A stretch of DNA of 64,000 nucleotides from a virus. Taxonomy: Duplodnaviria > Heunggongvirae > Uroviricota > Caudoviricetes. Where the stretch lies: positions 41,088 through 105,087 of IMG/VR virus record IMGVR_UViG_3300031949_000413; one strand, written 5' to 3'. Made by a program: the position numbers and the translations under genes. Positions 11,283 to 44,486 of this stretch are shown one piece after another (within the stretch, counting starts at the first letter, position 1; the number at the start of each line of letters is the position of its first letter). The notes under the pieces are model-generated. The model was not told the origin of the DNA. It ran no database searches and saw nothing but the letters and a program-made list of their open reading frames with translations.

Positions 11283-11297
11283 TCCTAAAGGAGAGCA

Positions 11298-13430: not shown

Positions 13431-13461
13431 ATTATAGCAATACTTTCTGGGGATAACGCTA

Positions 13462-15484: not shown

Positions 15485-15531
15485 TGAGCAAACTGACTGA
15501 TGAACTTGCTAAAACAAGCCAGTGGTGGTAA

Positions 15532-15732: not shown

Positions 15733-15914
15733 ATCGCTACGTCTACAGTCGTCAAATGAGCAATATCTACCTTGACGATAAATGGAATATCGTTCACACC
15801 GGGCGCAGGCCGAAAGAATGGGTGTACTGTGGGCTGGTGTGGCTAGGAGATGCGCGGGTCAATAAGTGGGACACGCAACCCGGTAAAGATAAGAAAGATA
15901 AGGTGACATCATGA
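15729..15914 (+). CDS. hypothetical protein
   Basis: ATG overlaps the upstream stop. Confidence 0.35.
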   Translation: MNRYVYSRQMSNIYLDDKWNIVHTGRRPKEWVYCGLVWLGDARVNKWDTQPGKDKKDKVTS

Positions 15915-18344: not shown

Positions 18345-18925
18345 GCGATAACATTTCCCTACAAGTGGTAACTGGTAGCCTACAAGACATCGTACAGTCC
18401 AAGCACACCAGTCTAGCCGATGCCTTCGTGGACGTGGACGCCGTGATCCTGATAGATGAGTCAGGCAGCATGGCCGCTACCGATAGTCGGGGCGGTAAGT
18501 CGCGTTTTAGTGTTGCCTGTGAGGAACTAGCTAACTTGCAGAAGTCCCAACCGGGTAAGTTCGCTGTGATCGGGTTCAGCACGGAAGTCGTTCCACATAT
18601 TGGTGGTGTTCCGATCTATCAGTCTGGTGGCACAGATATGGCTAGAGCATTGAACTACGCCAAGATGTTCGATGTGCCAACCATGCAGATATTCATGGTA
18701 TCAGACGGTGAACCAAATAGCGAGGAACAGACAATTGAAGTGGCTAAAACATACAAGCACGCCAATATTTTGACTATCTTCGTTGGGCCTGAAACCGACA
18801 GAGGCGGACGAGATTTCTTGGCAAAATTGGCGGCTGTCCGTGGTGGAAAAACCACTACGGCTGACCGTGTGATGGAGTTGTCTGAGAAGGTACAAACCCT
18901 GATGTTGGAAGGAGTACGAGCATGA
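18341..18925 (+). CDS. von Willebrand factor A (vWA) domain protein
   Basis: MIDAS motif ILIDESGSM. Downstream GGTDMARAL and MVSDGEPN. Confidence 0.7.
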   Translation: MSDNISLQVVTGSLQDIVQSKHTSLADAFVDVDAVILIDESGSMAATDSRGGKSRFSVACEELANLQKSQPGKFAVIGFSTEVVPHIGGVPIYQSGGTDMARALNYAKMFDVPTMQIFMVSDGEPNSEEQTIEVAKTYKHANILTIFVGPETDRGGRDFLAKLAAVRGGKTTTADRVMELSEKVQTLMLEGVRA

Positions 18926-19881
18926 AAAGCACTACCGAAAGAGAAGACAGAGACTTTGCCAACAAGGTGATTGATGATGGAGTAGCCGATGACATCATCC
19001 AAGATATTAGGGCTATATTGGCCCGCGACAGCTCTTGGGTGCTGGAATGGGTTGTTACTAATTTCGACCCGGAGGATGTTTACGACGATGATGCGCTGGG
19101 TGCGTGGGCCGGAAAATACGGGTACAGAAAATTACCACAAGAGCGTATCATTGATAACAAGATCGAATTGGGCGGCCTCGAGTTCATTAACATCCCGGCT
19201 GGTAAGTTCCTCATGGGCAGCAAGGATGACAACAACCTGGCTTATGATGCTGAGAAACCGCAGCACACGGTCGAAATTCCGTATGATTACTGGATCGCGC
19301 GCTACGAAGTGACGAACGACCAATTTGCGAAGTTCGTCGAGGCGGCAAAGTACAAATTCGATCAAGGCAAATGGCAAGACAAATCCGATCATCCGGTTGT
19401 GAATGTGACGTGGCATGATGCGATGGCCTATTCCAAGTGGCTGAATGAAACGTTGCGCGCTGAATTGGGCGATCAGGTTGTGCGCCTGCCGACCGAGGCC
19501 GAATGGGAAAAGGCCGCGCGTGGCGAATATGGCAACGAGTGGCCGTGGGGCAATGAGTTCGATCCGAAGAAGTGCAACTCAAGTGAGGGTGGCAAGCAGG
19601 GCACGACGCCTGTCAATGCGTATTCACCACAGGGCGATAGTCCCTATGGCGTGAGCGACATGGTGGGCAATGTGTGGGAGTGGACTTATTCGCTGCGGAA
19701 GTCATATCCATACAAAGTGGATGATGGCCGTGAGAGCGAGACGGATTCAGGGGTGCGGGTGGTGCGCGGCGGTTCCTGGTTCAATGGGGCCTCGGTCGCT
19801 CGGTGTACGTGCCGTAACAGGGACACGCCCGTTCTTCGTAACTTCGGTCTGGGGTTTCGCTGCGTCCTCCGGCTTTTATAG
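18922..19881 (+). CDS. FGE-sulfatase (SUMF1/formylglycine-generating-enzyme-like) domain protein
   Basis: LPTEAEWEKAARG, GNVWEWT, RGGSW and GFRCV are the hallmark FGE-sulfatase motifs. The roughly 60-aa N-terminal extension is unknown. Stop-start coupled to the vWA gene. Confidence 0.7.
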   Translation: MKSTTEREDRDFANKVIDDGVADDIIQDIRAILARDSSWVLEWVVTNFDPEDVYDDDALGAWAGKYGYRKLPQERIIDNKIELGGLEFINIPAGKFLMGSKDDNNLAYDAEKPQHTVEIPYDYWIARYEVTNDQFAKFVEAAKYKFDQGKWQDKSDHPVVNVTWHDAMAYSKWLNETLRAELGDQVVRLPTEAEWEKAARGEYGNEWPWGNEFDPKKCNSSEGGKQGTTPVNAYSPQGDSPYGVSDMVGNVWEWTYSLRKSYPYKVDDGRESETDSGVRVVRGGSWFNGASVARCTCRNRDTPVLRNFGLGFRCVLRLL

Positions 19882-26982: not shown

Positions 26983-28476
26983 ATGGACATTCAGGAGGTT
27001 GATATGGCTGACACGGAAGAAATCATTGATGGCGAAGTAGGATCACTGGCACTTGTGCCTACTATTGAAGCCCCTCTGGTTACACAAGGCGAAGATGTAT
27101 TCCACGGCCTATCGGTAGCCCCCATTACGGCTCAGCAGACAGCCGTTGTTCTATGCGAGGCCAACCCGGACGAGCTGGACATCCTACCCACTGGAGAGGT
27201 ATATCCCCCACAAGTCAATGTGCGCCTACGGCTCATTGAGGCATTCGGCCCAGCGGGTTGGGGAATGCGCCCATTATCAAAGCCCCACATCACAGAAAAT
27301 GTCGTAGTTCAAGAATGGGCATTGTACATCAACGGCAACTTTGTATCATACACTATTGGTGGAGCCGAGTACCAGTCTGGAAACAAGCGCCTGAACTGGT
27401 CGGATGCTCTGGAGTCTCTGAAGTCTAACGCTCTGGTAAGATTGTGCAAAGACTTGGGCATGTTCCATGAGTGCTGGGACAAGCATTGGGTTGACGAGTG
27501 GAAACGCAAGTATACCGTGAATGTATGGTGCAAGGTTAAGACGTGGGAGAAGGGAGTGGAAGTATTCAAGAACAAGACCCAGTGGCGCAGGGCTGACGCC
27601 CGTCCGCTGTGGAATGAGACTGGTATTGCCAAAGACTCTCCCAACAAGGACAAATACGTTGCACCCTCCGGTGGAGTAGTAGACCCAGAGACGGGTGAGA
27701 TTATTGATAGCAAGGCTGGTAGCAGGCAGTCTACCAAAGCACCAGTCACACCGTCGAAGGCAGATATTAAAGATAATGGTCAACCGCCCAAAGAGCCAGC
27801 ACCAGTCACGCCTGCTCACAAACCAATCATACCAGCGACTAAGGCTGAACCTGTACCAGAGCCAACGACTGCACAAGAGCCAGCCAAGACGAATGCTATC
27901 ACGGTAAGCATCTGGAACGGTACGACCATGAGTGAGAAACCAGCATTGGAGGCCATTGACGAGAAGGCCAAGAACTGGTTTGTGGGTAAGTTCATTGGTA
28001 AAGACAAGTTATGGGAATATGCGCCTGCCTTCTGGGGATCGGATAAATCAGACGATAAAGGCAAGGTCAACCCTGGTCATTTAGGCAAGCACTTTGGACG
28101 CCACAACCTAATCGATCCGAAGAGCCCGTTCACCTACGACCAATTTGCAAGTCTGGTGGGTTACTGCTGGCACAAACTGGGCGACCCGCACGGCTGGCTC
28201 GATCCTAGATACTATCAGGACAAGATAGACGAAGAAGCGAAGAAGGTTGCTAAAGACACCGACAGCGCGCGCACTGACCCAAATGCGATTGTCACCCGCG
28301 CCTCGCTGATGCTTATCCCCATTGTCAAGATCGCCAAAGATGCCTATGCTGTGGAATGGCAAGAACTGGACACAGCACGGTTAGAGTCATTGTCTACTCT
28401 GCTGGATATGGTAGAGTCGGGTAAGGTAGGACGTGAGGATTTTGATAAGATGATCGATATGCTGAAGGCGGGCTAA
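26983..28476 (+). CDS. Rad52/Mgm101-like single-strand annealing protein with Pro-rich linker and unknown C-terminal domain
   Basis: NWSDALESLKSNALVRLCKDLGMFHECWD resembles the Rad52 DALKRALRxFGNxLG helix. Low-complexity PPKEPAPVTPAHKPIIPATKAEP tract. Confidence 0.35.
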   Translation: MDIQEVDMADTEEIIDGEVGSLALVPTIEAPLVTQGEDVFHGLSVAPITAQQTAVVLCEANPDELDILPTGEVYPPQVNVRLRLIEAFGPAGWGMRPLSKPHITENVVVQEWALYINGNFVSYTIGGAEYQSGNKRLNWSDALESLKSNALVRLCKDLGMFHECWDKHWVDEWKRKYTVNVWCKVKTWEKGVEVFKNKTQWRRADARPLWNETGIAKDSPNKDKYVAPSGGVVDPETGEIIDSKAGSRQSTKAPVTPSKADIKDNGQPPKEPAPVTPAHKPIIPATKAEPVPEPTTAQEPAKTNAITVSIWNGTTMSEKPALEAIDEKAKNWFVGKFIGKDKLWEYAPAFWGSDKSDDKGKVNPGHLGKHFGRHNLIDPKSPFTYDQFASLVGYCWHKLGDPHGWLDPRYYQDKIDEEAKKVAKDTDSARTDPNAIVTRASLMLIPIVKIAKDAYAVEWQELDTARLESLSTLLDMVESGKVGREDFDKMIDMLKAG

Positions 28477-29816: not shown

Positions 29817-29828
29817 TTGGAGACTTTA

Positions 29829-30797
29829 ATGCAGGTTCAACTAGCCTTATCACTCGATGATGTTAGCCTGGTTCCTCGTTATTCAGAACTAGATAGCCGC
29901 GATGAAGTCCAACTCGGAACTGATTTGGACTTCGTTCATTTGGACATCCCGATCATTAGTAGTCCAATGGACACTGTGACGGGTATCGAGATGCAGGATG
30001 CCATTAGGCGTTGTGGCGGTATCGGTATCCATCATCGCTACACCGACACCAACACACTCATTCAGGCATATAGTCATGGCGGTATCGCAGTGTCACCATC
30101 AATGGGAACGAAATGGCTAGAGGCCATTAGCGAACCTGTTAGGGGCTATGGCGTTCTGGTTATTGATGTGGCACACGGCCATAGCAAGCGCGTCCTACAA
30201 TACGCAAAAGAACTGTGGGATATGGGTTTCTACGTCATATCGGGTAATATATGCACGGTAAGTGCTGCTGAAGCTTACTTAGATATTGGTGTAAACCTAT
30301 TAAGGGTTGGTATAGGATCGGGTAGCAGTTGTAGCACGAGACTGGTTGCTGGTGTGGGTGTTCCGCAGTTTACCGCCGTACAAGATATTAGTCGCATCTT
30401 CGGGAGTGAGGCTAAAGTCATCAGCGATGGGGGTATCAAGCACTCTGGCGACATCACTAAAGCATTGGCGGCTGGTGCAAATGCTGTAATGGTCGGGCGA
30501 CTTGTAGCAGGGGCAGATGAAGCACCTGGTAGGCATGTTAGCGACAACTACAAGGAGTTTCGTGGCATGGCAAGCCTGCCTTCGCTTGATGCTGCTGGCA
30601 AGGAACGTAACATTGAAGGTGTGGCCTCACACGTAAAACTTGAAGGGCCACTATCGGGTATCATGGAGCGTGTTGCTCGTGAGCTAAGGATTGGGTTCGC
30701 CTACCTCGGCGCACACAATATCCAAGAGCTACAAGAGCGTGCAGAATTTGTGCAAGTGACTACTTTAGGGCTAGACGAAGGAAGGCCGAGGATATAA
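29829..30797 (+). CDS. IMP dehydrogenase / GMP reductase family TIM-barrel enzyme (no CBS domains)
   Basis: LSLDDVSLVP, PIISSPMDTV, catalytic-Cys loop GIGSGSSCSTR, and ISDGGI ... AGANAVMVG. ATG at 29829 after GGAGACTTTA. Confidence 0.75.
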   Translation: MQVQLALSLDDVSLVPRYSELDSRDEVQLGTDLDFVHLDIPIISSPMDTVTGIEMQDAIRRCGGIGIHHRYTDTNTLIQAYSHGGIAVSPSMGTKWLEAISEPVRGYGVLVIDVAHGHSKRVLQYAKELWDMGFYVISGNICTVSAAEAYLDIGVNLLRVGIGSGSSCSTRLVAGVGVPQFTAVQDISRIFGSEAKVISDGGIKHSGDITKALAAGANAVMVGRLVAGADEAPGRHVSDNYKEFRGMASLPSLDAAGKERNIEGVASHVKLEGPLSGIMERVARELRIGFAYLGAHNIQELQERAEFVQVTTLGLDEGRPRI

Positions 30798-30964: not shown

Positions 30965-31556
30965 AAGTAAGTACCCATTTCCTATAGACTTATCGGGCAA
31001 CTTCGTGTAAGATAGCAGTCAGGTAGTGGGGTGTAGTTGACCAGCCTGCCCTGACCGGGTAAAACCACTATAGTTCACCCATTGATCACAAGAAAAGGTA
31101 GCCGATGTCTCTGCACAAACGATGAAGCGCAGACCGCCGTGTATGTGGATGGAGAGATGGAATACTATGTCCATTCAGAAGTCCAGCACCGTTATGACGC
31201 CGATACGGTGTGACGCACACAAGCCCAAATGGGAGCATTGTGTGTATCTGGGGCAGATAACCATCATCGGTGGTGGGAAACACATACATGGTGTTCTGCG
31301 AAACATCGCAGGGGTAGGCGCAACGAGCGTAACAGGCGTAATACGGCCACTTGAGTGGCACGATAGACTAGCGGGTTCGATACCCCACCGTTGCTAATAG
31401 AGGACACTGAGAGTGACTAACTTAGGAAGAGCCGGATAAAGAGTCTAGGTCATCAAAATGAAGTCCCCGGCACGTCCGCCAGTACGCTGAACTGGCACTT
31501 ACTTGACCATAAACAGTCCACAGCCATACTGAGGGTAGTACCAAAGGAGAAATGAA

Positions 31557-32465
31557 ATGTTGAATAAGATTGTCGTGCTGTTCGCCATCGCGGTAGCCCT
31601 GACGGGTTGTTTCTTCAATGAGCCAGTAGGACAAGACCAGCAGGCCGTCAAGCTGGACGGCGGTAAGTTTGTAGAGTGTGTCGGTTCTGGCATTCACACG
31701 GACTTAGGGCCATTTGCCGACCTGGTTCAGATTTCATCAAGAACCATTAACTTTTTAGTATCAGACCCGCAGGTAGCAACCAAAGATAGCCAGCTCGTTG
31801 GTGTTGAATTGGCCGTTCAAGTCAGGCGCAAGACCGACTGTGAATCCATGCAGTCTATTTTGAGAAATTGGCCGTCCGTGATTGACAACGACGATAGCAT
31901 GAGGCTATTGGTCGAGCCGGCCACCCTAGAGGCCATTAAGGTTGGCACTCGTGAGTTCTCATTAGATGAGCTATTAAACGACAGGAACAAGCTGGCTGAT
32001 GGTATTCGCGGGTCGCTCATTGACGACGCGGGCAAGTTCAGTTCCGAGATTGTCAACGTCCAAGTCAAGAACGTTCAGATTGACGACAACTATGCTCAGC
32101 TTCTCCAACAAAAGGCTAACCTGACCGCCGAACGAGAAGTTAAGGTTCGCCAGCAAGAGATTATTCGGCAAGACGCCTCCAACCAACAGCTAGAGCAAAC
32201 GCAGCAGGCTGAGACATATCGGAAACAGCTTGAGGCGGAGAAGGCTAAGACTGACATAGAGGTAGAGATTGCCAAAAGAGAAGGTAGTGTCATCGCCGCC
32301 CAGAATCAAGTCTATTCTCTGAATCCGCAGGCATTTGAGATCAAGCGGCTCGAATTACTGGCGAAGGTACTGGGCGACAAGGCTACCATGTATTTCATTC
32401 CACAAGGCACTTCCCTGTCAGTGCTATTAGGTCAGATTGGGGCTGGTGCGGTAATTTCACCATGA
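31557..32465 (+). CDS. SPFH/band-7 (HflC/stomatin-like) lipoprotein
   Basis: Signal peptide plus LTGC lipobox. SPFH-like core with a long coiled-coil C-terminus (QQKANLTAEREVKVRQQ ...). Confidence 0.55.
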   Translation: MLNKIVVLFAIAVALTGCFFNEPVGQDQQAVKLDGGKFVECVGSGIHTDLGPFADLVQISSRTINFLVSDPQVATKDSQLVGVELAVQVRRKTDCESMQSILRNWPSVIDNDDSMRLLVEPATLEAIKVGTREFSLDELLNDRNKLADGIRGSLIDDAGKFSSEIVNVQVKNVQIDDNYAQLLQQKANLTAEREVKVRQQEIIRQDASNQQLEQTQQAETYRKQLEAEKAKTDIEVEIAKREGSVIAAQNQVYSLNPQAFEIKRLELLAKVLGDKATMYFIPQGTSLSVLLGQIGAGAVISP

Positions 32466-32665
32466 CTGGGATTGGCCTGATTCTCAAGGCAGTTATTCAG
32501 TTCATAGTCGTCATGCTGGCGATAGCGGCTATTGTTCTGGTGGTATCCTTCATGGCGGTGAGCATTGTGTACTTTCTGAGAGTGATTTTCAGGATTGAGA
32601 ATCGTGGATATGCTGAATATCTGTCAGAGATTGTGGCAACAGTAACTAGGAGAAGTCGGTACTAA
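32462..32665 (+). CDS. small membrane protein coupled to the SPFH gene (NfeD-partner-like)
   Basis: ATGA overlap. Two TM helices. Confidence 0.45.
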   Translation: MTGIGLILKAVIQFIVVMLAIAAIVLVVSFMAVSIVYFLRVIFRIENRGYAEYLSEIVATVTRRSRY

Positions 32666-32707
32666 AGTAATGTTGACATCTTATCAGGAATAACTTACAA
32701 TAGGCAC

Positions 32708-33003: not shown

Positions 33004-33171
33004 ATGAAAACATTTGTGGTGTCATTTAATGAGGCTGGTGGTGAATACGTAGGGCATCTGACAGTGAGATGTAAAACCTTGAGGCTGTCAGAGAAGGACA
33101 ACAAGACATTCTCGGCTGATGGGGTTATCATTACCATAGACGAGAAGATCATCAATGTAGTAGAACTTTAG
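33004..33171 (+). CDS. hypothetical small protein
   Basis: ATG after GGAGCATA within ORF 32938..33171. Confidence 0.3.
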   Translation: MKTFVVSFNEAGGEYVGHLTVRCKTLRLSEKDNKTFSADGVIITIDEKIINVVEL

Positions 33172-33246
33172 GGGGCATAGCTCAGTCCGGTTCAGAGCAG
33201 ATGCTTGTCAAGCATAAGGTCGTGGATTCAAATTCCACTGTCCCCG
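33171..33246 (+). tRNA. tRNA-Asp (GTC)
   Basis: Acceptor GGGGGCA/TGTCCCC. D-arm GCTCAGT ... GAGC. Anticodon loop TTGTCAA. T-arm GTGGA-TTCAAAT-TCCAC. Confidence 0.6.
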
Positions 33247-33250
33247 CCTT

Positions 33251-33323
33251 GCTCACAAAGTTCAGATGGTGGAACATATCTTTGGTAAAGATAAGGTCGG
33301 GGATTCGAGCGCCCCTGTGAGCT
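33251..33323 (+). tRNA. tRNA-Thr (GGT)
   Basis: Acceptor GCTCACA/TGTGAGC. Anticodon stem TATCT/AGATA with loop TTGGTAA. Confidence 0.5.
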
Positions 33324-33327
33324 CATG

Positions 33328-33410
33328 GCTGGTGTACGCAACTGATATGACGAAGCTCACTTAAAATGAGTGCCCGACAGGGCGTGTGGGTTTGAATCCC
33401 ACCACCAGCA
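33328..33410 (+). tRNA. tRNA-Leu (TAA), long variable arm
   Basis: Acceptor GCTGGTG/CACCAGC. Loop CTTAAAA. Variable stem GCCC/GGGC. T-arm GTGGG-TTTGAAT-CCCAC. Confidence 0.5.
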
Positions 33411-33441
33411 CAGACTGTTGGCTCTTTAATAATTGAATGTC

Positions 33442-33514
33442 GCCGTGATCGTACAAACGGAAAGTACACTGCCCCTGTAAGGCAGGGATGTGGGATCATA
33501 CTCCACTCATGGCT
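33442..33514 (+). tRNA. tRNA-Thr (TGT), non-canonical (C33, T-loop ATCATAC)
   Basis: Acceptor GCCGTGA/TCATGGC. D-stem GTAC/GTAC. Anticodon stem CTGCC/GGCAG with loop CCTGTAA. Confidence 0.35.
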
Positions 33515-33518
33515 CTAG

Positions 33519-33591
33519 GCGGGTATAGTTCAATTGGTAGAGCGCGACTCCTCCAAAGTCGAGACGACGGGATCGTACCCCGCTACCCGCT
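33519..33591 (+). tRNA. tRNA-Gly (TCC), C33
   Basis: Acceptor GCGGGTA/TACCCGC. D-arm TAGTTCAATTGGTAGAGC. Anticodon stem CGACT/AGTCG with loop CCTCCAA. Confidence 0.5.
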
Positions 33592-33592
33592 C

Positions 33593-33663
33593 TCCCCGAT
33601 AGCACAGCGGAAGTGTACTGCACTCGTAACGCAGAGACGCCAGATCAAGACTGGTTCGGGGAT
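33593..33663 (+). tRNA. tRNA-Thr (CGT)
   Basis: Acceptor TCCCCGA/TCGGGGA. Loop CTCGTAA. T-arm GCCAG-ATCAAGA-CTGGT. Confidence 0.4.
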
Positions 33664-33677
33664 CATGGAGGGTACAA

Positions 33678-33862
33678 TGGTAAAGGCATTGAAGTCAAAG
33701 ACAGCTGAAGACAGAGCCAAGCATTTTCTGGCAGAGTTATTGGACGAGACATTGGATTGGTCATGTACAGACACCCAGCATGAATTGGCATACGCCCTGA
33801 AGGAAATTCTGGAAGATTACTGTCCCGATTGGATAGACCCCTATCGGGTCAGCGAAGAATGA
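33678..33862 (+). CDS. hypothetical small protein embedded in the tRNA island
   Basis: ATG at 33678 after GGAGGG (MVKALKSKTAEDRAKHF ...). The longer ORF-track frame 33488.. overlaps tRNAs and is rejected. Confidence 0.4.
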
Positions 33863-33864
33863 AT

Positions 33865-33953
33865 GCTCAGTAGGCGACTATCGGTTGGTCGCATGGCGCT
33901 GTAGACGCCATCCACTAAAAAGGCGTGGTCGGGTTCGACTCCCACACTGAGCA
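33865..33953 (+). tRNA. tRNA-Tyr (GTA), long variable arm
   Basis: Acceptor GCTCAGT/ACTGAGC. Anticodon stem TGGCG/CGCCA with loop CTGTAGA. Variable stem CCAC/GTGG. T-loop TTCGACT. Confidence 0.5.
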
Positions 33954-33957
33954 CTAT

Positions 33958-34030
33958 GGGTCGTTAGCTCATTTAGGAGAGCACTGCACCTGCAATGCAG
34001 AGGCGACTGGAGCAAAGCCAGTACGATCCA
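33958..34030 (+). tRNA. tRNA-Ala (TGC), C33, atypical T-loop
   Basis: Acceptor GGGTCGT/ACGATCC. D-arm TAGCTCATTTAGGAGAGC. Anticodon stem CTGCA/TGCAG with loop CCTGCAA. Confidence 0.45.
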
Positions 34031-34033
34031 CAT

Positions 34034-34109
34034 GCCGACGTGACGGGAACCAAGTATACCTACCTGCCTCAAAAGCAGGTGCTTACCGGCGCAAATCCGG
34101 TCGTCGGCA
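34034..34109 (+). tRNA. tRNA-like, anticodon CAA (Leu?), short variable arm, poor D-arm
   Basis: Acceptor GCCGACG/CGTCGGC. Anticodon stem CCTGC/GCAGG with loop CTCAAAA. T-arm ACCGG-CGCAAAT-CCGGT. Confidence 0.3.
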
Positions 34110-34115
34110 CTTGAT

Positions 34116-34188
34116 ACGGGTGAAGCCGAAGAAGATAGGCGACGATCTCCAAAATCGTTAGTAGCAGGCGCACGTCCTGCCACCCGTG
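34116..34188 (+). tRNA. tRNA-Trp (CCA)
   Basis: Acceptor ACGGGTG/CACCCGT. Anticodon stem ACGAT/ATCGT with loop CTCCAAA. Confidence 0.5.
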
Positions 34189-34337
34189 CCTAATGGCTCT
34201 AGTGCCACATGACCCATCTATCGGGTGTCAAGTGATTTCATCTTACAATATGAAATAGTAAACAAGTTGTGTCTGTGTGCCCAGAGTGGAGAGAAGCGAG
34301 CACTGAAACTCCTACAGAGACGGCTAGAACCATGAAT

Positions 34338-34409
34338 GCCAGTGTAGCTCAATGGATGAGCGACAAGTTTCTACCTTGTAGGATGAGAGTTCGACCCTCT
34401 CCACTGGTA
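34338..34409 (+). tRNA. tRNA-Arg (TCT)
   Basis: Acceptor GCCAGTG/CACTGGT. D-arm TAGCTCAATGGATGAGC. Anticodon stem ACAAG/CTTGT with loop TTTCTAC. T-arm GAGAG-TTCGACC-CTCTC. Confidence 0.7.
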
Positions 34410-34410
34410 C

Positions 34411-34485
34411 TGCGCGGTGAGCTGGAGTAGTCCCAGCAGCGGCCTCATAAGCCGAATGACGTGGTTGCAAATACCACCCGCGCTA
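34411..34485 (+). tRNA. tRNA-Met (CAT) (approximate ends)
   Basis: D-stem GCTG/CAGC. Loop CTCATAA. T-arm GTGGT-TGCAAAT-ACCAC. Acceptor GCGCGG/CCGCGC. Confidence 0.4.
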
Positions 34486-34621
34486 CCTATGCAAGACACA
34501 GCTTAAGATGTGTCGAGCAGAACGGCTGTGTAAATGGTCGTATCGCCATTACGTCTCAAACGGATAGAGCGCGGCTCTGCGGAGGCCGAGGCAGTCGGCT
34601 CAACACCGGCATCGGGTACTT

Positions 34622-34708
34622 GGAGTAGTAGCGATAGTTGGCATTCGCGCCTGACCTGCTAAGTCAGCGCCCCGCAAGGGGTTGGCAGATCGTCACTGCC
34701 CTACTCCG
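34622..34708 (+). tRNA. tRNA-Ser (GCT), long variable arm
   Basis: Acceptor GGAGTAG/CTACTCC. Anticodon stem CTGAC/GTCAG with loop CTGCTAA. Variable hairpin CCCC-GCAA-GGGG. Confidence 0.55.
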
Positions 34709-34888
34709 CCTTCCGCACGAGGGAATATCCTTCCTCTGGCATACGGGAGTCTCATCGTTAAGGAACTCTAGTTCCGTTGGTAGGCCGTAAGACCTTTGAG
34801 ACCGTGCGGAGCCGAGAGTCCAATCGCTAAGACGTGGATATGCGCGGGCCACACTCGGTAGCGGGACGGGACACACCCGCTAAAATAT

Positions 34889-34961
34889 GGTGTCTGAACC
34901 CAAACGGTGCGGGGAATGCCTGTGGAGCATTTATTAGCCAGTTCGACTCTGGTCTGACACC
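34889..34961 (+). tRNA. tRNA-His (GTG) with extra 5' G(-1)
   Basis: G(-1) plus GTGTCTG paired with CTGACAC-C. Anticodon stem AATGC/GCATT with loop CTGTGGA. T-arm GCCAG-TTCGACT-CTGGT. Confidence 0.55.
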
Positions 34962-35028
34962 CTCGGTAGAGTGGGGGCTAAAGGTGAGGCTACCACAAGA
35001 ACGCCAAAATCTGCCCACTCTGCCCCAC

Positions 35029-35100
35029 AGGGCATTGGTCAACCAGCGAAGACGCAAGGTTTTCAACCTTGAAGGGTCGGGCCAGCACCGACATGCCCTA
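35029..35100 (+). tRNA. tRNA-Glu (TTC)
   Basis: Acceptor AGGGCAT/ATGCCCT. Anticodon stem CAAGG/CCTTG with loop TTTTCAA. T-arm GTCGG-GCCAGCA-CCGAC. Confidence 0.45.
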
Positions 35101-35105
35101 TTGAT

Positions 35106-35190
35106 GGCAGGTTGGCAGAGAGGCTTATCGCGGCGCTCCTGAAAAGCGTTAGGGATTACACCCACACTCGTTCAAATCGAGTACCTGCCT
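35106..35190 (+). tRNA. tRNA-Ser (TGA), long variable arm, C33
   Basis: Acceptor GGCAGGT/ACCTGCC. Loop CCTGAAA. T-arm ACTCG-TTCAAAT-CGAGT. Confidence 0.5.
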
Positions 35191-35193
35191 CTT

Positions 35194-35264
35194 GCTACCG
35201 AAGTGAAACGGTTCATGACGGACTTTTAATCCGTTCGGACAGAGTTCGACTCTCTGCGGTAGCA
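35194..35264 (+). tRNA. tRNA-Lys (TTT)
   Basis: Acceptor GCTACCG/CGGTAGC. Anticodon stem ACGGA/TCCGT with loop CTTTTAA. T-arm CAGAG-TTCGACT-CTCTG. Confidence 0.65.
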
Positions 35265-35267
35265 CTT

Positions 35268-35339
35268 GGGTTGCGAGCTTGGATGGTTAAGCATCCGCCT
35301 CTTAAGCGGAAGAGAGGGATTCGAGTTCCCTGCGACCCA
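35268..35339 (+). tRNA. tRNA-Lys (CTT)
   Basis: Acceptor GGGTTGC/GCGACCC. D-stem GCTT/AAGC. Anticodon stem TCCGC/GCGGA with loop CTCTTAA. T-arm AGGGA-TTCGAGT-TCCCT. Confidence 0.65.
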
Positions 35340-35429
35340 CATGGCAAACCGATGTCATTACCGCACTGGGAATAACCCAGTGAGTCGGATCGGGATGGAG
35401 GAGGGCGCATTCCTAAATAACGTCCACCA

Positions 35430-35503
35430 CGGGGACAGGTGTATAAGGATTGCACACGCGCCCTGGGAGCGCGAGGCAGCCGATTCGATTTCGGCGTCCC
35501 CGA
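35430..35503 (+). tRNA. tRNA-Pro (TGG), C1:G72, C33
   Basis: Acceptor CGGGGAC/GTCCCCG. Anticodon stem CGCGC/GCGCG with loop CCTGGGA. T-arm GCCGA-TTCGATT-TCGGC. Confidence 0.55.
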
Positions 35504-35506
35504 CCT

Positions 35507-35577
35507 TGCCCTGTCGTATAAAGGTAGTACACAACACTCTGGATGTTGGGGAAGTGGATCAGTACCACTCAGGGCAG
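35507..35577 (+). tRNA. tRNA-Gln (CTG), U1:A72
   Basis: Acceptor TGCCCTG/CAGGGCA. Anticodon stem CAACA/TGTTG with loop CTCTGGA. T-arm AGTGG-ATCAGTA-CCACT. Confidence 0.45.
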
Positions 35578-35581
35578 CTTT

Positions 35582-35653
35582 GCAGACGCCATATCCCGGT
35601 GGATATGCCACTCCGATAAGGTGGTCAAGATGGCTCAACTCCATCCGTCTGCA
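35582..35653 (+). tRNA. tRNA-Ile (GAT), C33
   Basis: Acceptor GCAGACG/CGTCTGC. Anticodon stem CCACT/GGTGG with loop CCGATAA. T-arm GATGG-CTCAACT-CCATC. Confidence 0.5.
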
Positions 35654-35657
35654 CTAT

Positions 35658-35729
35658 GCGGGAGTAGCTTAATGGTAGAGCGCATCATCGCCAATGATGT
35701 AGGTGTCAGTTCAAATCTGATTTCCCGCC
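35658..35729 (+). tRNA. tRNA-Gly (GCC)
   Basis: Acceptor GCGGGAG/TTCCCGC. D-arm TAGCTTAATGGTAGAGC. Anticodon stem CATCA/TGATG with loop TCGCCAA. T-loop TTCAAAT. Confidence 0.6.
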
Positions 35730-35823
35730 CTGTGTCATTCGGGCAGTTAGAGGCTGCACCCATTATAGCGGATACGTAGCCGTTGATGGGCATAGACTGG
35801 GGCGACAACGAATGACCCTAAAT

Positions 35824-35898
35824 ACCCTCGTCGCCTAATTGAATATGGCACTTGGTTTCGACCCAAGCACAATGAGAGTTTGAATCTCTCCGAGGGTT
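35824..35898 (+). tRNA. tRNA-Arg (TCG)
   Basis: Acceptor ACCCTCG/CGAGGGT. Anticodon stem CTTGG/CCAAG with loop TTTCGAC. T-arm GAGAG-TTTGAAT-CTCTC. Confidence 0.5.
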
Positions 35899-35905
35899 CT
35901 AAAAT

Positions 35906-35979
35906 TGCTACGTAGCTCAAGTGGCCGAGCGCCTGACCGTTAATCAGGATACATGCTGGTTCAAGTCCAGTCGTAGCAG
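35906..35979 (+). tRNA. tRNA-Asn (GTT), C33
   Basis: Acceptor TGCTACG/CGTAGCA. D-stem GCTC/GAGC. Anticodon stem CCTGA/TCAGG with loop CCGTTAA. T-arm GCTGG-TTCAAGT-CCAGT. Confidence 0.55.
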
Positions 35980-35983
35980 CTAT

Positions 35984-36066
35984 GCCGGTGTACTCGAATT
36001 GGCAACAGAGAGCAGTCTTAGAAACTGCTTCCGCAAGGATTGGAGGTTCGACCCCTCTCACCGGCA
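35984..36066 (+). tRNA. tRNA-Leu (TAG), long variable arm
   Basis: Acceptor GCCGGTG/CACCGGC. Anticodon stem GCAGT/ACTGC with loop CTTAGAA. T-arm GGAGG-TTCGACC-CCTCT. Confidence 0.55.
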
Positions 36067-36071
36067 CTGAT

Positions 36072-36144
36072 GGAACACTAGGCGAATTGGAAAGCCGTCA
36101 CATCCTCACTGTGAAGATTGCGGGATCGAGGCCCGCGTGTTCCA
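36072..36144 (+). tRNA. tRNA-Glu (CTC), C33
   Basis: Acceptor GGAACAC/GTGTTCC. Anticodon stem TCACA/TGTGA with loop TCCTCAC. T-arm GCGGG-ATCGAGG-CCCGC. Confidence 0.4.
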
Positions 36145-36149
36145 CTAAT

Positions 36150-36224
36150 GCCTCTATCGGTCAATTGGTTAGACCATCTTCCTTACAAGAAGAAACAGTG
36201 GTGGATCGTACCCACCTAGAGGCA
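36150..36224 (+). tRNA. tRNA-Val (TAC)
   Basis: Acceptor GCCTCTA/TAGAGGC. Anticodon stem TCTTC/GAAGA with loop CTTACAA. T-arm GGTGG-ATCGTAC-CCACC. Confidence 0.55.
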
Positions 36225-36227
36225 CAC

Positions 36228-36300
36228 GCCGCTTTCGTATAGCTGGTCTGTATGCAGCACTGAAAATGCTGAGGTCTCGGATCGTCACCGAGGGGCGGCA
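36228..36300 (+). tRNA. tRNA-Phe (GAA)
   Basis: Acceptor GCCGCTT/GGGCGGC (two G-T pairs). Anticodon stem CAGCA/TGCTG with loop CTGAAAA. T-arm CTCGG-ATCGTCA-CCGAG. Confidence 0.45.
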
Positions 36301-36303
36301 CAC

Positions 36304-36376
36304 ACGGGAAGGTAGGGGCGATTCCCCTAGCGAGTCTTATAAGCCCGCAATCGTGGTCTGACTCCACGTTCCCGTA
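36304..36376 (+). tRNA. tRNA-like, anticodon TAT (Ile?), weak anticodon stem
   Basis: Acceptor ACGGGAA/TTCCCGT. T-arm CGTGG-TCTGACT-CCACG. Loop CTTATAA. Confidence 0.3.
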
Positions 36377-36381
36377 CTCGT

Positions 36382-36453
36382 GCTCCCGTAGCATAATCGG
36401 TAATGCACTGGTCTTTGGAACCGGGCAACTACGTTCAAATCGTGGCGGGAGTG
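36382..36453 (+). tRNA. tRNA-Gln (TTG)
   Basis: Acceptor GCTCCCG/CGGGAGT. D-stem GCAT/ATGC. Anticodon stem CTGGT/ACCGG with loop CTTTGGA. T-arm CTACG-TTCAAAT-CGTGG. Confidence 0.55.
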
Positions 36454-36456
36454 CCT

Positions 36457-36591
36457 ATGGCAAACTACAAGCGCAAGAAGTCACGCCGAAATGTGAGATG
36501 CTGTATATGCACTCCTCATAGGTGGCTGGGGAATGGTAAGGGCCGCCACAATGGATGGGAACGGCGCAGAACTTCTAAGAGAAATGGCTAG
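36457..36591 (+). CDS. small highly basic Cys-containing protein (44 aa)
   Basis: ATG at 36457 after GGGAG. Reads MANYKRKKSRRNVRCCICTPHRW ... The longer ORF-track frame 36403.. begins inside tRNA-Gln. Confidence 0.3.
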   Translation: MANYKRKKSRRNVRCCICTPHRWLGNGKGRHNGWERRRTSKRNG

Positions 36592-36658
36592 ATAATCGAG
36601 TGGTCTCAGATGACTCTCTGCAAAAGAGTTCACGTGGATTCAAATTCCACTCTAGCCT
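36586..36658 (+). tRNA. tRNA-Cys (GCA)
   Basis: Acceptor GGCTAGA/TCTAGCC. Anticodon stem ACTCT/AGAGT with loop CTGCAAA. T-arm GTGGA-TTCAAAT-TCCAC. Confidence 0.6.
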
Positions 36659-36661
36659 CAT

Positions 36662-36735
36662 GCCGATATGGTGTAATTGGAGAACATGCCAAAGTCCTAA
36701 TTTGGAGAGTCCCAGTTCGAGTCTGGGTATCGGCA
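36662..36735 (+). tRNA. tRNA-Arg (CCT)
   Basis: Acceptor GCCGATA/TATCGGC. Anticodon stem CCAAA/TTTGG with loop GTCCTAA. T-arm CCCAG-TTCGAGT-CTGGG. Confidence 0.5.
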
Positions 36736-36755: not shown

Positions 36756-37283
36756 ATGATGACCGCCGCAATTTTGCTACTGAATGCTGACTATACTCCC
36801 ATTCGGGTGATGAACCTGAACAGGGCGCTATCGTTGATATTCAAGGATAGGGTAGACTTGGTACAAGATGTGCCGGGCAAACAATTGAGATCGCCTAGCA
36901 CTACTTTGCCATTCCCGTCTATATTGCGCCTAAAAAGATACGTGAATGTACCCAGACGCGGTGTAACCTGGTCAAGACGAGCCGTATTCGCTCGTGATGG
37001 CTACCGGTGCGTGTATTGCAACGAGAAACTTGACAGAGATACGGCGACACTAGACCATCTAACACCCCGCGATACCTGTTCCAAGATGGGTATTCGCGCA
37101 TCGACCTTCGGTAATTCCGTTTGCTCTTGTGGTCGATGCAATAGGAGAAAGAGTAACCGTAGCCTAGAGGATAGCGGTATGCGGTTCTACGACCCGGCCT
37201 ACACACCGAAGATTCCGAGAGTCAACTACGTTGTGTTATCTGGCGAAATTCCAACAGAGTGGCGAGCTTACATCAGGTTGTAG
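36756..37283 (+). CDS. HNH endonuclease (McrA/terminase-associated type)
   Basis: ATG after AAAGGACTG. YRCVYCNEKL ... LDHLTPR ... CSCGRCNRRKSN. The ORF-track frame beginning at 36600 overlaps two tRNAs and is trimmed. Confidence 0.75.
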   Translation: MMTAAILLLNADYTPIRVMNLNRALSLIFKDRVDLVQDVPGKQLRSPSTTLPFPSILRLKRYVNVPRRGVTWSRRAVFARDGYRCVYCNEKLDRDTATLDHLTPRDTCSKMGIRASTFGNSVCSCGRCNRRKSNRSLEDSGMRFYDPAYTPKIPRVNYVVLSGEIPTEWRAYIRL

Positions 37284-43520: not shown

Positions 43521-44486
43521 ATGGTTGAAATGAATACAGACAAATCACTTGTAGCACTCAACACTTCAATACTTGCAGCTGGCTCTGAACTCAACCCAAT
43601 ACTCAACGAGTGGATTGAACATCTCGACCTATTGGTAAATACTGGCGAAATATCATCAGCCACACGGCAGACCTATAGAGAGGGACTTCGACACTTCCTA
43701 GACTGGCATCAGGGTAAGTCCGTCACAACGCAGAATACAATTAGGGAGTGGGTATCTGACTTGCGGGGCGCATTTAACAATGCAACCGTCAGAGTGTGGT
43801 TTTCTGGCTTGCGCGCCTTTTTCGTGTGGGCCACTGATTCTCATTACATTCCTAATAATCCCACTGATGGCATCAAGCTCGGTAAACGAACTGATAGTAG
43901 GAAGCACAAGCGTAGCCCATTAACAGATATAGAAGTCAGGCGCGTACTAGCCGCACCTAATAATACTGTGGTTGGTACACGAGACCGGGCCATATTGTAC
44001 ACAATGGCCTTTACTGCCGCCAGAACTGTCGAGATACATCGCCTAGACCTTAAGGATGTTCATACTGAGGGCAATTCTATTGTATTGGACGTGTATGGCA
44101 AGGGTGAGAAAGAGGCCGATCAATGGATGGTGTTAAGCAACCATAAGGCACAGACCGTTCTATATGAATGGCTGTCGGTTAGAGGAGATGAGACTGGCCC
44201 ACTATTCACATCGCTATCCCCTCGCACTATGGGAAAAAGACTATCTCTATCCGCCATTAGGGAAATGATTAAGTCATACTATAAAGTCGCTGGTGTCACT
44301 GGCGGCATAAAGACAACCCACAGCCTGCGCCACTCGGCTATCACCAATGCTATCAAGCACAAGCTCCCACCTACTAAAGCACAGTCTATGGCACGGCACA
44401 AGAGCCTAGAAACCACTATGATTTACTACCATGAAGAAGATCGTAAAACCAACCCCGCCGAGGAATATATAGACTATGGAGAGTAG
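43521..44486 (+). CDS. int: tyrosine recombinase / phage integrase
   Basis: N-terminal SAM-like domain (TYREGLRHFLDWH). Catalytic domain with R (TRDRAIL), HSLRHSA and MIYYH (the Tyr). Confidence 0.85.
   Translation: MVEMNTDKSLVALNTSILAAGSELNPILNEWIEHLDLLVNTGEISSATRQTYREGLRHFLDWHQGKSVTTQNTIREWVSDLRGAFNNATVRVWFSGLRAFFVWATDSHYIPNNPTDGIKLGKRTDSRKHKRSPLTDIEVRRVLAAPNNTVVGTRDRAILYTMAFTAARTVEIHRLDLKDVHTEGNSIVLDVYGKGEKEADQWMVLSNHKAQTVLYEWLSVRGDETGPLFTSLSPRTMGKRLSLSAIREMIKSYYKVAGVTGGIKTTHSLRHSAITNAIKHKLPPTKAQSMARHKSLETTMIYYHEEDRKTNPAEEYIDYGE

Follow-up and report, generated by a model that had tools for sequence, protein, structure and literature searches.

Introduction

Complete sets of transfer RNA (tRNA) genes are already known in phages, the 56 tRNAs of XacN1 being one example (PMC5852040), and bacteriophage T5 (AY543070) carries 24 tRNAs for the 20 amino acids. 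Long, horizontally transferred tRNA arrays likewise constitute a described class (PMC8421152), the published definition of which calls for at least 20 tRNA genes at a density of at least two per kb (PMC4758250). Presented here is an analysis of a tRNA island located at positions 33171-36735 of a 64,000-nucleotide stretch of tailed phage DNA, namely positions 41,088 to 105,087 of the IMG/VR record IMGVR_UViG_3300031949_000413. This entire stretch is referred to as the window, and all coordinates are those of the window unless otherwise specified. With 32 genes at ~9 per kb, a single orientation, and an HNH endonuclease gene as a neighbor, the island is a long tRNA array by the published definition, and in layout it is closest to the tRNA region of T5. 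A first-pass annotation of the sequence had considered so complete a complement to be rare for a phage. The completeness holds, but the point on rarity has to be qualified, given T5, XacN1, and the long arrays cited above.

Our preferred reading, to which we assign a probability of roughly 0.7, is that the island is a phage-borne long tRNA array comprising 32 functional genes and one decayed copy, which would be co-transcribed and serve as a self-sufficient decoding set. The non-canonical nucleotides found in these tRNAs are best read, from their sequences, as a divergent but structurally compensated core rather than as decay. That the genes are genuine and working is argued by the constraint they have kept, by the coupling between their D- and T-loops, by compensatory changes relative to an orthologous island, and by identity elements of the bacterial type.

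Detection of the tRNA genes

The array holds 32 intact cloverleafs, no two of which share an anticodon and which together serve all 20 amino acids, and one broken tRNA-Arg (GCG)-like element, all on the + strand. The number, the strand, and the amino acid coverage had been put forward in the first-pass annotation on the basis of hand folding, and all were borne out by ARAGORN, Rfam, and an island-specific covariance model, hereafter designated R1. With default settings, ARAGORN reports 23 tRNAs in the island. The Rfam model RF00005, for which the gathering score is 29 bits, finds 18 with standard filters and, far from a mere handful, 24 at 29 bits or above with permissive filters applied over the region. 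The union of the default ARAGORN and Rfam calls is 28 tRNAs.

Four further full-size cloverleafs are called in the relaxed (mitochondrial) mode of ARAGORN, namely Trp-CCA (called as 34116-34190), Glu-TTC (35029-35100), Ile-GAT (35582-35654), and Ile-TAT (36304-36377). Outside of the island this mode yields a background of 0.116 calls per kb per strand, all of them short, such that ~0.17 calls would be expected in the 1.45 kb of spacer, with a probability of ~3e-5 for four or more. R1, which was built from 13 other tRNAs of the island and searched without filters across all 64 kb, scores the four at 41.7, 30.0, 24.8, and 12.4 bits, respectively, with the best match outside of the island at 10.7 bits. 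They sit only 2-5 nt from neighboring tRNAs, and together their anticodons supply precisely the decoders that the other 28 lack, a coincidence expected at ~1e-6 for four random triplets. The four were accepted on the basis of the low background, the tight fit to the gaps, the missing-decoder anticodons, and the R1 scores. Only Ile-TAT is marginal, given its R1 score of 12.4 bits against 10.7 bits outside; it fits exactly into a 79-nt gap and provides the AUA decoder.

All 32 genes give a cloverleaf built of an acceptor stem of 7 bp, an anticodon stem of 5 bp closed by a 7-nt loop, and a T arm. Pairing in the acceptor stem is complete (7/7) in 30 of them and extends to six of seven positions in two. 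The initial tallies by amino acid were correct in covering all 20, but they sum to 34 rather than 32, and there are three tRNA-Leu anticodons (TAA, CAA, and TAG) rather than four. A brute-force cloverleaf scan with lengths of up to 124 nt picked up 29 of the 33 known elements but no additional one in the spacers, and hence no fourth tRNA-Leu. The fourth tRNA-Arg of those tallies can be located at 34545-34618 (+ strand; GCG; R1, 25.3 bits). Pairing is intact in its D, anticodon, and T arms but is limited to 3/7 positions in the acceptor stem, such that the element is probably a pseudogene and not one of the genes with intact stems, as had been assumed.

The individual genes are described below in their 5' to 3' order, with bit scores referring to Rfam RF00005 unless R1 is specified. 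All are default ARAGORN calls unless otherwise noted. The array begins with a canonical tRNA-Asp (GTC; 33171-33246; 64.2 bits; G73) and a tRNA-Thr with U33 (GGT; 33251-33323; 52.1 bits). The class II tRNA-Leu (TAA; 33328-33410; 38.0 bits; not an ARAGORN default call), with the T-loop TTTGAAT and a GA D-loop (A19:U56), was parsed by hand because ARAGORN -ps misreads its anticodon arm. The next two genes, tRNA-Thr (TGT; 33442-33514; 42.4 bits) and tRNA-Gly (TCC; 33519-33591; 46.9 bits), both contain C32-C33 and an A54:U58 combination, in T-loops reading ATCATAC and ATCGTAC, respectively. These are followed by tRNA-Thr (CGT; 33593-33663; 49.0 bits; T-loop ATCAAGA with A54 and A58) and a class II tRNA-Tyr with a 3-bp T stem (GTA; 33865-33953), which in Rfam is matched only by the tRNA-Sec model (26.6 bits). 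Four tRNAs that are not ARAGORN default calls come next: tRNA-Ala (TGC; 33958-34030; 48.3 bits), with C33, G3:U70, and the T-loop AGCAAAG (G55); a CAA tRNA, Leu by anticodon (34034-34109; 39.4 bits; R1, 38.9 bits), with a short variable region, the T-loop CGCAAAT (G55), and an AG D-loop; tRNA-Trp (CCA; 34116-34188; ARAGORN -mt; no Rfam match; acceptor 7/7), with A1:U72, G73, the T-loop CGCACGT (G55), and an AG D-loop; and, after a canonical default-called tRNA-Arg (TCT; 34338-34409; 63.1 bits), tRNA-Met (CAT; 34411-34485; 30.2 bits; R1, 31.5 bits), with the T-loop TGCAAAT (G55) and an AG D-loop.

Beyond the Arg (GCG)-like element lie a class II tRNA-Ser (GCT; 34622-34708; R1, 28.8 bits) with the T-loop ATCGTCA (A54:U58), tRNA-His (GTG; 34889-34961; 40.5 bits; not a default call), and tRNA-Glu (TTC; 35029-35100; ARAGORN -mt; no Rfam match; acceptor 7/7) with the T-loop GCCAGCA and an AG D-loop. 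A second class II tRNA-Ser, with C33 (TGA; 35106-35190; R1, 15.1 bits), precedes the two tRNA-Lys genes (TTT, 35194-35264, 53.2 bits; CTT, 35268-35339, 49.9 bits), tRNA-Pro with C33 (TGG; 35430-35503; no Rfam match), tRNA-Gln (CTG; 35507-35577; 45.5 bits; T-loop ATCAGTA), tRNA-Ile with C33 and the T-loop CTCAACT (GAT; 35582-35653; ARAGORN -mt; no Rfam match), and tRNA-Gly with C33 (GCC; 35658-35729; 60.8 bits). The final portion of the array holds tRNA-Arg (TCG; 35824-35898; 49.0 bits; T-loop TTTGAAT, D-loop GA, A19:U56), tRNA-Asn with C33 (GTT; 35906-35979; 53.7 bits), a class II tRNA-Leu (TAG; 35984-36066; 48.3 bits), tRNA-Glu with C33 and the T-loop ATCGAGG (CTC; 36072-36144; 51.3 bits), tRNA-Val (TAC; 36150-36224; 54.1 bits; T-loop ATCGTAC, A54:U58), tRNA-Phe (GAA; 36228-36300; 40.9 bits; T-loop ATCGTCA, A54:U58), tRNA-Ile (TAT; 36304-36376; ARAGORN -ps80/-mt only; acceptor 7/7; A73) with the T-loop TCTGACT and a GA D-loop, tRNA-Gln (TTG; 36382-36453; 54.6 bits), tRNA-Cys (GCA; 36586-36658; 56.4 bits; U73), and tRNA-Arg (CCT; 36662-36735; 59.9 bits).

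The non-canonical core

Half of the tRNAs break near-universal sequence rules, which call for U33, T54-U55-C56, and G18-G19. Position 33 is C in 9/32 and never a purine. At least eight such loops had been recognized in the first-pass annotation, and the ninth is that of Glu-CTC (TCCTCAC). T-loops without the TTC consensus had also been correctly noted, but they number 17 rather than about ten: eight start with ATC (five of these with U58), four with NGC, two with TTT, and one each with CTC, TCT, and GCC. The G18-G19 dinucleotide is absent at the aligned D-loop positions in 8/32, and six have no GG anywhere in the D-loop. Other features are strictly kept, with a pyrimidine at position 33 in 32/32 and at position 32 in 31/32, and a purine at positions 37 and 57 in 32/32.

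For comparison, a control set was assembled from 103 tRNAs called by ARAGORN with default settings in T5, RAS14, XacN1, and five other loci, including a 159-kb IMG/VR phage, an 807-kb contig, and candidate-host contigs. U33 is lacking in 4/103 and TTC in 5/103 of the controls, whereas the corresponding values for the default calls in the window are 7/23 and 9/23. The enrichment is thus real (p = 6e-4 and 6e-5, respectively).

The substitutions in the D- and T-loops are coupled. Positions 18 and 55 combine as G:U in 26 tRNAs, A:G in four, A:C in one, and G:C in one (Fisher p = 3e-5), and positions 19 and 56 as G:C in 29 and A:U in three, with no other combination (Fisher p = 2e-4). As can be seen from the individual loops, every tRNA with U55-C56 has a GG D-loop, and all four G55 tRNAs (Ala, CAA, Trp, and Met) have AG. 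The three U56 tRNAs have GA, such that A19:U56 replaces G19:C56. Positions 54 and 58 likewise covary, with U:A in 19, A:U in five, and A:A in three (Fisher p = 7e-4). A54 occurs in nine tRNAs, and in the five where it pairs with U58 the U54:A58 reverse-Hoogsteen pair is inverted.

The constraint at position 33 in this lineage is for a pyrimidine and not specifically for U. C33 could be tolerated, it could be exposed to selection that varies over time, such as anticodon nucleases might impose (PMC10264068), or it could be edited back to U. There is a suggestive association of C33 with U34 in the family boxes (5/8 versus 4/24 elsewhere).

The C32-C33 and ATCGTAC loops recur together in a tRNA-Gly (UCC) on the - strand (1294-1368) of an unrelated 159-kb phage, L028 (IMGVR_UViG_3300014043_000003). 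The stems of this tRNA are entirely different, it has U73, and CCA is encoded, as it is in the other tRNAs of that phage; the nine neighboring tRNAs are canonical. The design is therefore not private to one lineage. ARAGORN with default settings misses this tRNA, and standard tools recover only 23-24 of the 32 genes in the window. Because of such omissions, phage tRNA surveys probably undercount lineages of this type.

An orthologous island

A pattern search for the odd Gly loops led to a 1.4-kb metagenome contig of a related phage, L033 (sample JGI20214J51650), that is ~80% identical to 33251-34110. The gene order is the same as in the window: Asp, Thr, Leu, Thr, Gly, Thr, Tyr, Ala, and CAA. 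Among the 185 stem positions of the nine tRNA pairs, 98 are unchanged, 84 differ, and three are unpaired in both. Of the 84 differences, 67 are double changes in which pairing is kept and which are thus compensatory, eight are one-sided with pairing kept, and nine are gains or losses.

Several of the most unusual tRNAs provide the clearest examples. The tRNA-Gly (UCC) differs from its ortholog at six bases, which constitute three compensatory pairs in three stems, whereas the C33 and A54:U58 loops are identical. The ortholog of the tRNA-Thr at 33442-33514 retains the ATCATAC loop and shows five compensatory stem changes, and that of tRNA-Thr (GGT), which is 80% identical and has C33 in place of the U33 of the window, shows four. 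In tRNA-Tyr, 5/5 anticodon-stem pairs have been swapped for other pairs, and in tRNA-Ala acceptor positions 1-6, including G3:U70, are kept while the remainder has diverged. The Ala and CAA orthologs have ordinary TTC loops. Indeed, the elbows of the Leu-TAA and CAA tRNAs are GG/TTC in L033 versus GA/TTT and AG/CGC, respectively, in the window, and thus the tertiary partners were altered jointly within one lineage. All nine pairs agree in their discriminator base. Position 33 differs between C and U in four of the nine pairs, in both directions and never to a purine. This rate is about average for the loop positions, of which 31/119 have diverged. Note that two syntenic tRNA-Thr genes have swapped anticodons, with those at 874-947 and 1026-1099 of L033 reading CGT and TGT and those at 33442-33514 and 33593-33663 of the window reading TGT and CGT. 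C33 goes with the TGT anticodon in both phages.

The spacers and the gene content between the tRNAs differ between L033 and the window, the latter difference being a sign of horizontal mobility. The search for further arrays gave nothing: two IMG/VR pattern scans with conserved Thr and Tyr segments produced no match, and no homologous array was found in IMG/VR scans near homologs of the flanking HNH, SPFH, IMPDH-like, and Mgm101 proteins.

Identity elements, codon coverage, and maturation

The identity rules employed here are established knowledge, and the fit of each tRNA was judged against its anticodon. The tRNA-Ala has G3:U70; tRNA-His has an encoded G-1 opposite C73; tRNA-Pro has C1:G72 and A73; tRNA-Trp has A1:U72 and G73; Gln (CTG) has U1:A72 and G73; and Gly-UCC has U73. 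The His and Pro features had been predicted beforehand and were found as described. Position 73 agrees with the Escherichia coli rule in 24/32. Overall, the discriminator bases and key identity elements are of the bacterial type and match the anticodons. The CAA tRNA has a short variable region (5-7 nt) in both phages (34034-34109 of the window and 1275-1351 of L033). The other two tRNA-Leu are normal class II molecules, and a class I tRNA-Leu is unusual for bacteria.

The set is non-redundant, with one tRNA per anticodon and all 20 amino acids represented. Six four-codon boxes (Leu-CUN, Val, Ser-UCN, Pro, Ala, and Arg-CGN) are served by a single U34 tRNA, and the remaining two, Thr and Gly, hold additional tRNAs. 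Four-way reading by U34 is the practice in Mycoplasma and mitochondria and, if it is assumed here, all 61 sense codons would be readable. The AUA decoder is Ile-UAU rather than a lysidine-modified CAU, and the CGN decoder is Arg-UCG, accompanied by the GCG relic, rather than an inosine-forming ACG. The set would therefore not need host TilS or TadA. Codon usage in the phage is flat, with all 61 codons used with little bias at 49% G+C, and independence from host codon usage, as had been suggested at the outset, is plausible.

None of the 32 genes encodes CCA. Nucleotide 74, however, is C in 31/32, with six reading CC, and the base preceding position 1 is T in 23/32. These preferences may represent a processing signal or a CCA relic. 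The island would be transcribed as part of a + strand early/replication block to give a polycistronic precursor, which RNase P would cleave at the 5' end of each tRNA. The short 3' trailers would then be trimmed and the ends finished by a CCA-adding enzyme not encoded in the window. The tRNAs would be expressed, charged, and used on the ribosome, and the phage could go on translating its codons, which are evenly distributed, in a host whose own tRNAs are scarce, mismatched, or destroyed. Such a role fits the emerging view of phage tRNAs as insurance against host tRNA depletion.

Weighing of the evidence

A number of observations weigh against the island being a fully working set. Eight of the 32 tRNAs fall below the Rfam threshold, of which four (Tyr, both Ser, and Pro) are called by ARAGORN with default settings and four are not. 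The latter score 12.4-41.7 bits with R1, and Ile-TAT, marginal even with this model, also has one anticodon-stem mismatch. The Arg-GCG-like decay product demonstrates that genes of this array can die. There is a single CAU tRNA, and thus either the initiator or the elongator tRNA-Met is missing. In one parse the tRNA-Met (34411-34485) resembles a bacterial initiator in its A73 and unpaired U1.U72, and in the Rfam parse it has a 6-bp acceptor stem. Its anticodon stem holds two of the three initiator G:C pairs. Coverage of all 61 codons rests on the assumed four-way reading by U34, and no CCA-adding enzyme, deaminase, ligase, or synthetase was found among the 59 window open reading frames (ORFs) scanned with Pfam. 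U33-to-C substitutions are known to weaken ribosome binding in vitro. In D-loops lacking GG, the placement of positions 18 and 19 is alignment-dependent, and the Rfam model places those of tRNA-Ala differently. Finally, the ortholog comparison covers 9/32 tRNAs on a single 1.4-kb fragment, and for the more diverged pairs the cloverleafs were parsed separately in each sequence, which favors the finding of pairs. The Gly, Thr-GGT, Tyr, and fourth-gene Thr pairs align with few or no gaps and are free of this bias.

With regard to why the core is unusual, it is possible, although we hold the idea only tentatively, that C33, A54, and the altered elbow reflect selection for tRNAs on which tRNA-targeting host nucleases or toxins act poorly, or which are independent of host modification enzymes. 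A phage with its own tRNA set would survive a tRNA-depleting defense. This explanation concerns the cause of the unusual core and is compatible with a functional array. It has been hypothesized that anticodon-loop changes in phage tRNAs block anticodon nucleases (PMC10264068), and phage tRNAs that rescue infection from tRNA-cleaving defenses have been described (PMC11555353, PMC11464382). Several anticodon nucleases cut beside or recognize position 33, as exemplified by the UQU motif of colicin E5 (PMC1635277), and the Asn-GTT of the window reads CGU instead. The anticodon choices sidestep TilS and TadA, and the L028 tRNA-Gly, with the same loops on different stems, points to convergence or long retention. 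On the other hand, the C33/U33 flips occur at about the average loop divergence and look neutral within pyrimidines, and at least one anticodon nuclease, the gamma-toxin, is indifferent to a U33C change (PMC2275089). We know of no nuclease that reads positions 54 and 58. In its broadest form the idea would have the entire core (U33, U54:A58, G18:U55, and G19:C56) rewritten with compensation to evade host tRNA-targeting defenses or modification enzymes, or else C33 repaired by editing, and in that form we regard it as equally tentative. If true, the island would be a natural, nearly orthogonal decoding set, one design of which, the C33 and A54:U58 tRNA-Gly (UCC), recurs in an unrelated phage.

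Partial decay is, in our estimation, unlikely. According to it, only the 15 to 24 canonical-looking tRNAs work, and those with C33 or odd T-loops are drifting pseudogenes kept by linkage. The eight tRNAs under the Rfam threshold, four of them invisible to Rfam, would be so explained, as would the element at 34545-34618, which has clearly lost its acceptor stem, the long spacers that differ between the window and L033, and the free interchange of C33 and U33 between orthologs. Decay would not be expected, however, to be confined to a few positions with the same substitutions recurring, to leave the acceptor stem fully paired in 30/32, or to change the D- and T-loops in a coupled manner. Relative to L033, the stems of the non-canonical Gly, Thr, Ala, and Leu tRNAs have changed in a compensatory manner and their identity elements have been conserved, and the weakest four provide decoders absent elsewhere in the set. 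On these grounds, namely tertiary covariation, compensatory stems, and bacterial identity elements, the original proposal of genuinely divergent tRNAs is upheld, and we prefer the reading of a functional, compensated array.

Editing seems to us quite improbable. In this scheme a cytidine deaminase would convert the genomic C33 to U33 post-transcriptionally, making C and T equivalent in the gene. A precedent exists in Methanopyrus kandleri, where C8 tRNA genes are repaired by the enzyme CDAT8. The scheme would account for the replacement of the conserved U by C only (9/32) and never by a purine, and for the exchange of C and U between orthologs. Yet no deaminase domain was found in the 59 Pfam-scanned ORFs of the window or in the annotations of the flanking 10 kb, which together represent about half of the 126-kb genome, and the context of C33 is not uniform, with C32 or U32 before it and U, G, or C at position 34. 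To our knowledge, C-to-U editing of tRNA has not been described in bacteria or phages. Least probable of all is that the four G55 tRNAs (Ala, CAA, Trp, and Met) stay off the ribosome and serve another aminoacyl-tRNA-dependent process, as does the similar non-proteogenic tRNA-Gly of Staphylococcus with its TGC/TGT T-loop and no G19 (PMC7826273), for they are the sole carriers of their anticodons in a complete non-redundant set, the L033 orthologs of Ala and CAA have TTC loops, and the window showed no gene of the Fem or L/F-transferase type.

Spacers

Six spacers of 66-178 nt interrupt the array, and notable folds are found in only two of them, both on the + strand. That at 34963-35028 is closed by an 11-bp stem (folding z-score of -2.5), and that at 35731-35823 has a tRNA-like outline in which an 8-bp stem encloses a D-like hairpin and a long arm, the T arm being absent (z-score of -1.77). 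The 147-nt spacer at 34191-34337 (+ strand) has a z-score of -1.25, no cloverleaf, and a similarity to the island tRNAs that is no greater than that of shuffled controls; the 178-nt spacer at 34711-34888 (+ strand) folds no better than its shuffles and holds no cloverleaf; and the 89-nt spacer at 35341-35429 (+ strand) contains a 7-bp hairpin (z-score of -1.76) and no cloverleaf. Hairpins had been predicted in the spacers and are indeed present. Partial cloverleafs had been suspected as well, but apart from the Arg-GCG-like element no further cloverleaf was found with R1, relaxed ARAGORN runs, or the brute-force scan.

No spacer matches Rfam or R1, and none is conserved. No other RNA family in Rfam is represented in the region, the matches to YrlA and plastid families being sub-threshold echoes of the tRNAs. 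The possibility that the spacers are tRNA remnants was rejected as unsupported: in spite of suggestive short repeats, their similarity to the island tRNAs is no better than that of shuffled spacers. The extra spacer tRNAs reported by very relaxed ARAGORN runs proved to be noise.

Genomic setting and candidate host

The source phage has a 126-kb genome and is known from metagenomes only. Three public datasets yielded further assemblies of it, as contigs of up to 126 kb with 100% identity, and consequently these provide no information on microdiversity. No relatives were found among 50,697 GenBank phages, a DNA search of the island against them giving only single matches to generic tRNA-Arg genes. 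Pfam and PHROG scans mark the window as that of a tailed phage with a tape measure protein, a major head protein, a GH25 lysin, an integrase, and a replication module. The + strand genes up to 37283 are devoted to replication and metabolism and include a DnaB-like helicase, Mgm101, RuvB, an IMPDH/GMP-reductase-like gene, and an SPFH gene. From 37688 onward the - strand carries the lysis and structural genes (C39 peptidase, GH25 lysin, a tape measure protein of 1388 amino acids, and the major head protein), within which the integrase gene (43521-44486) lies on the + strand. As a set, the accessory genes are unusual: a full-length RuvB, a DnaJ-domain protein, an FGE-sulfatase-type enzyme, an Mgm101-type recombination protein, and an IMPDH/GMP-reductase-like enzyme, located at 13770-14723, 17269-18141, 18922-19881, 26983-28476, and 29817-30797.

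The tRNA island forms the end of the + strand block. Its 3,565 bp are occupied by genes separated by only 2-6 nt in the packed stretches, and the first tRNA begins at the stop codon of a small ORF. A promoter-like site on the + strand at 32673-32701 (TTGACA, 17 nt, TACAAT; 11/12 consensus matches) lies 5' of two small ORFs that lead straight into that tRNA. It is a mere candidate, as the promoter scan as a whole was not enriched over shuffles. Inside the array no promoter- or terminator-like + strand site was found other than a weak hairpin at 33405-33421. Two small + strand ORFs are embedded in the array. The first (33665-33862; 65 amino acids) has a weak phrog_7295 match and is not present at that place in L033; its sole homolog, 69% identical, is on a 1-kb contig without tRNAs. 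The second, a putative ORF of 44 amino acids (36457-36591) that would be very basic and Cys-rich, has no Pfam or PHROG match. The HNH endonuclease gene (36759-37283, + strand; Pfam HNH; phrog_16726, E = 9e-21) is situated 24 nt 3' of the last tRNA.

The closest cellular homologs of the SPFH gene, at ~48-50% identity, belong to Candidatus Collierbacteria of the Candidate Phyla Radiation (CPR), where they reside among housekeeping genes, and Collierbacteria is the only GTDB species representative matching this gene. On the basis of this one gene there may be a weak host link to Candidatus Collierbacteria. The link is weakened by the presence of a Band 7 gene in the tRNA region of XacN1 as well; SPFH homologs occur both on Collierbacteria chromosomes and in unrelated phages without an array. 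RuvB, which is equidistant from many phyla, is uninformative as to the host. The NNA codons of the family boxes are commoner in the phage than in the Collierbacteria contigs (GCA, 0.27 versus 0.08; CCA, 0.41 versus 0.23) and match its U34 tRNAs, a point that is relevant if the host link holds. The first-pass annotation had also entertained host-adapted variants, but this is not supported in that the tRNAs on these only candidate-host contigs are canonical. The Thr-UGU loop differs from theirs (CCTGTAA versus TTTGTAA), whereas those of Thr-GGU and Trp are identical.

SPFH/Band 7 genes lie beside or within tRNA arrays in three unrelated phage-like genomes: at 31557-32665 of the window, at 31115-32026 of XacN1 (L034), and at 10001-10963 of L019 (ERZ21878113 contig_32; 807 kb). 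A conserved membrane ORF of ~70 amino acids follows the SPFH gene in both the window and Collierbacteria. In L019, possibly a very large phage or else a small genome that carries a prophage, the SPFH homolog is followed by another tRNA island (~6600-15750), where three tRNAs are called with 6-nt anticodon loops and one match spans 136 nt, possibly owing to an intron. A sub-threshold Y-RNA-like match is also present, and a serine recombinase is encoded nearby.

Comparison with known systems

Like the window, T5 has a one-strand tRNA cluster for the 20 amino acids with interspersed small ORFs and HNH homing endonuclease genes. Stable or tRNA-like RNAs are annotated between the T5 tRNAs, and the spacers of the window occupy comparable positions, although this is an analogy rather than evidence. 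The two islands share no sequence similarity, and the T5 region extends over ~13 kb as opposed to 3.6 kb. Moreover, the T5 tRNAs are canonical, with U33 in all real calls and TTC in all but one, and they include Ile-CAU and both fMet and Met, unlike those of the window.

The long tRNA arrays resemble that of the window in their single orientation, horizontal spread, and neighboring homing endonuclease gene (PMC8421152). They also contain a few pseudogenes among mostly functional genes, as in Anabaena, where 23/26 are aminoacylated. In the literature on these arrays we found no description of a systematic C33 or A54:U58 core, and most of them add redundant copies to a cell's set, whereas the array of the window is non-redundant and resides in a phage. 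Complete or nearly complete sets are found in XacN1 (all 20 amino acids), the mycobacteriophages of cluster C1 (~33 tRNAs; PMC10264068), and Stenotrophomonas phage RAS14. These tRNA-rich phages are mostly jumbo phages with tRNAs scattered among ORFs, and XacN1, RAS14, and the like have at most 1-2 non-U33 tRNAs each, compared with 9/32 in the window. The tRNA-Ile (GAT) of XacN1, however, has the same CCGATAA loop, with C33, as the Ile-GAT of the window, and C33 may thus be recurrent in phage tRNA-Ile. XacN1 also shares the Band 7/SPFH gene of the neighborhood.

The minimal sets of Mycoplasma and mitochondria likewise employ one U34 tRNA per four-codon box, some with relaxed D-/T-loop contacts, and Mycoplasma mobile uses Ile-UAU for AUA, as does the window. 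Those cellular and organellar sets were shaped by genome reduction, whereas the window phage uses 61 codons evenly at 49% G+C. Position 32 is known to govern four-way reading by UCC (PMC7826273). The Staphylococcus non-proteogenic tRNA-Gly resemble the G55 tRNAs of the window in having G55 (TGC/TGT) in place of U55 and in the loss of G19 (PMC7826273), but they are extra isoacceptors for cell-wall synthesis, whereas the G55 tRNAs are the only Ala, Trp, Met, and CAA decoders.

In vertebrates, the initiator tRNA-Met also contains C33 (loop CCCAUAA, T-loop AUCGAAA). The eukaryotic cytoplasmic initiator is the classic natural A54 tRNA (PMC7912444). There, A54 is paired with A58 in a single specialized initiator, whereas in the window A54 is found mostly with U58, in nine tRNAs, eight of which have the ATC triplet, and all of which are of elongator types by anticodon. 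For tRNA biology, the island represents a natural mutagenesis experiment on the core (Y33, A54:U58, A18 with G55, and A19:U56), including nine probable C33 elongators; for phage biology, it represents a compact, non-redundant set that could decode every codon while avoiding two anticodons that need TilS or TadA. Relative to the systems described above, what is unusual is the combination of strict non-redundancy and full codon coverage in 3.6 kb, modification-independent anticodons, and a compensated rewriting of the core.

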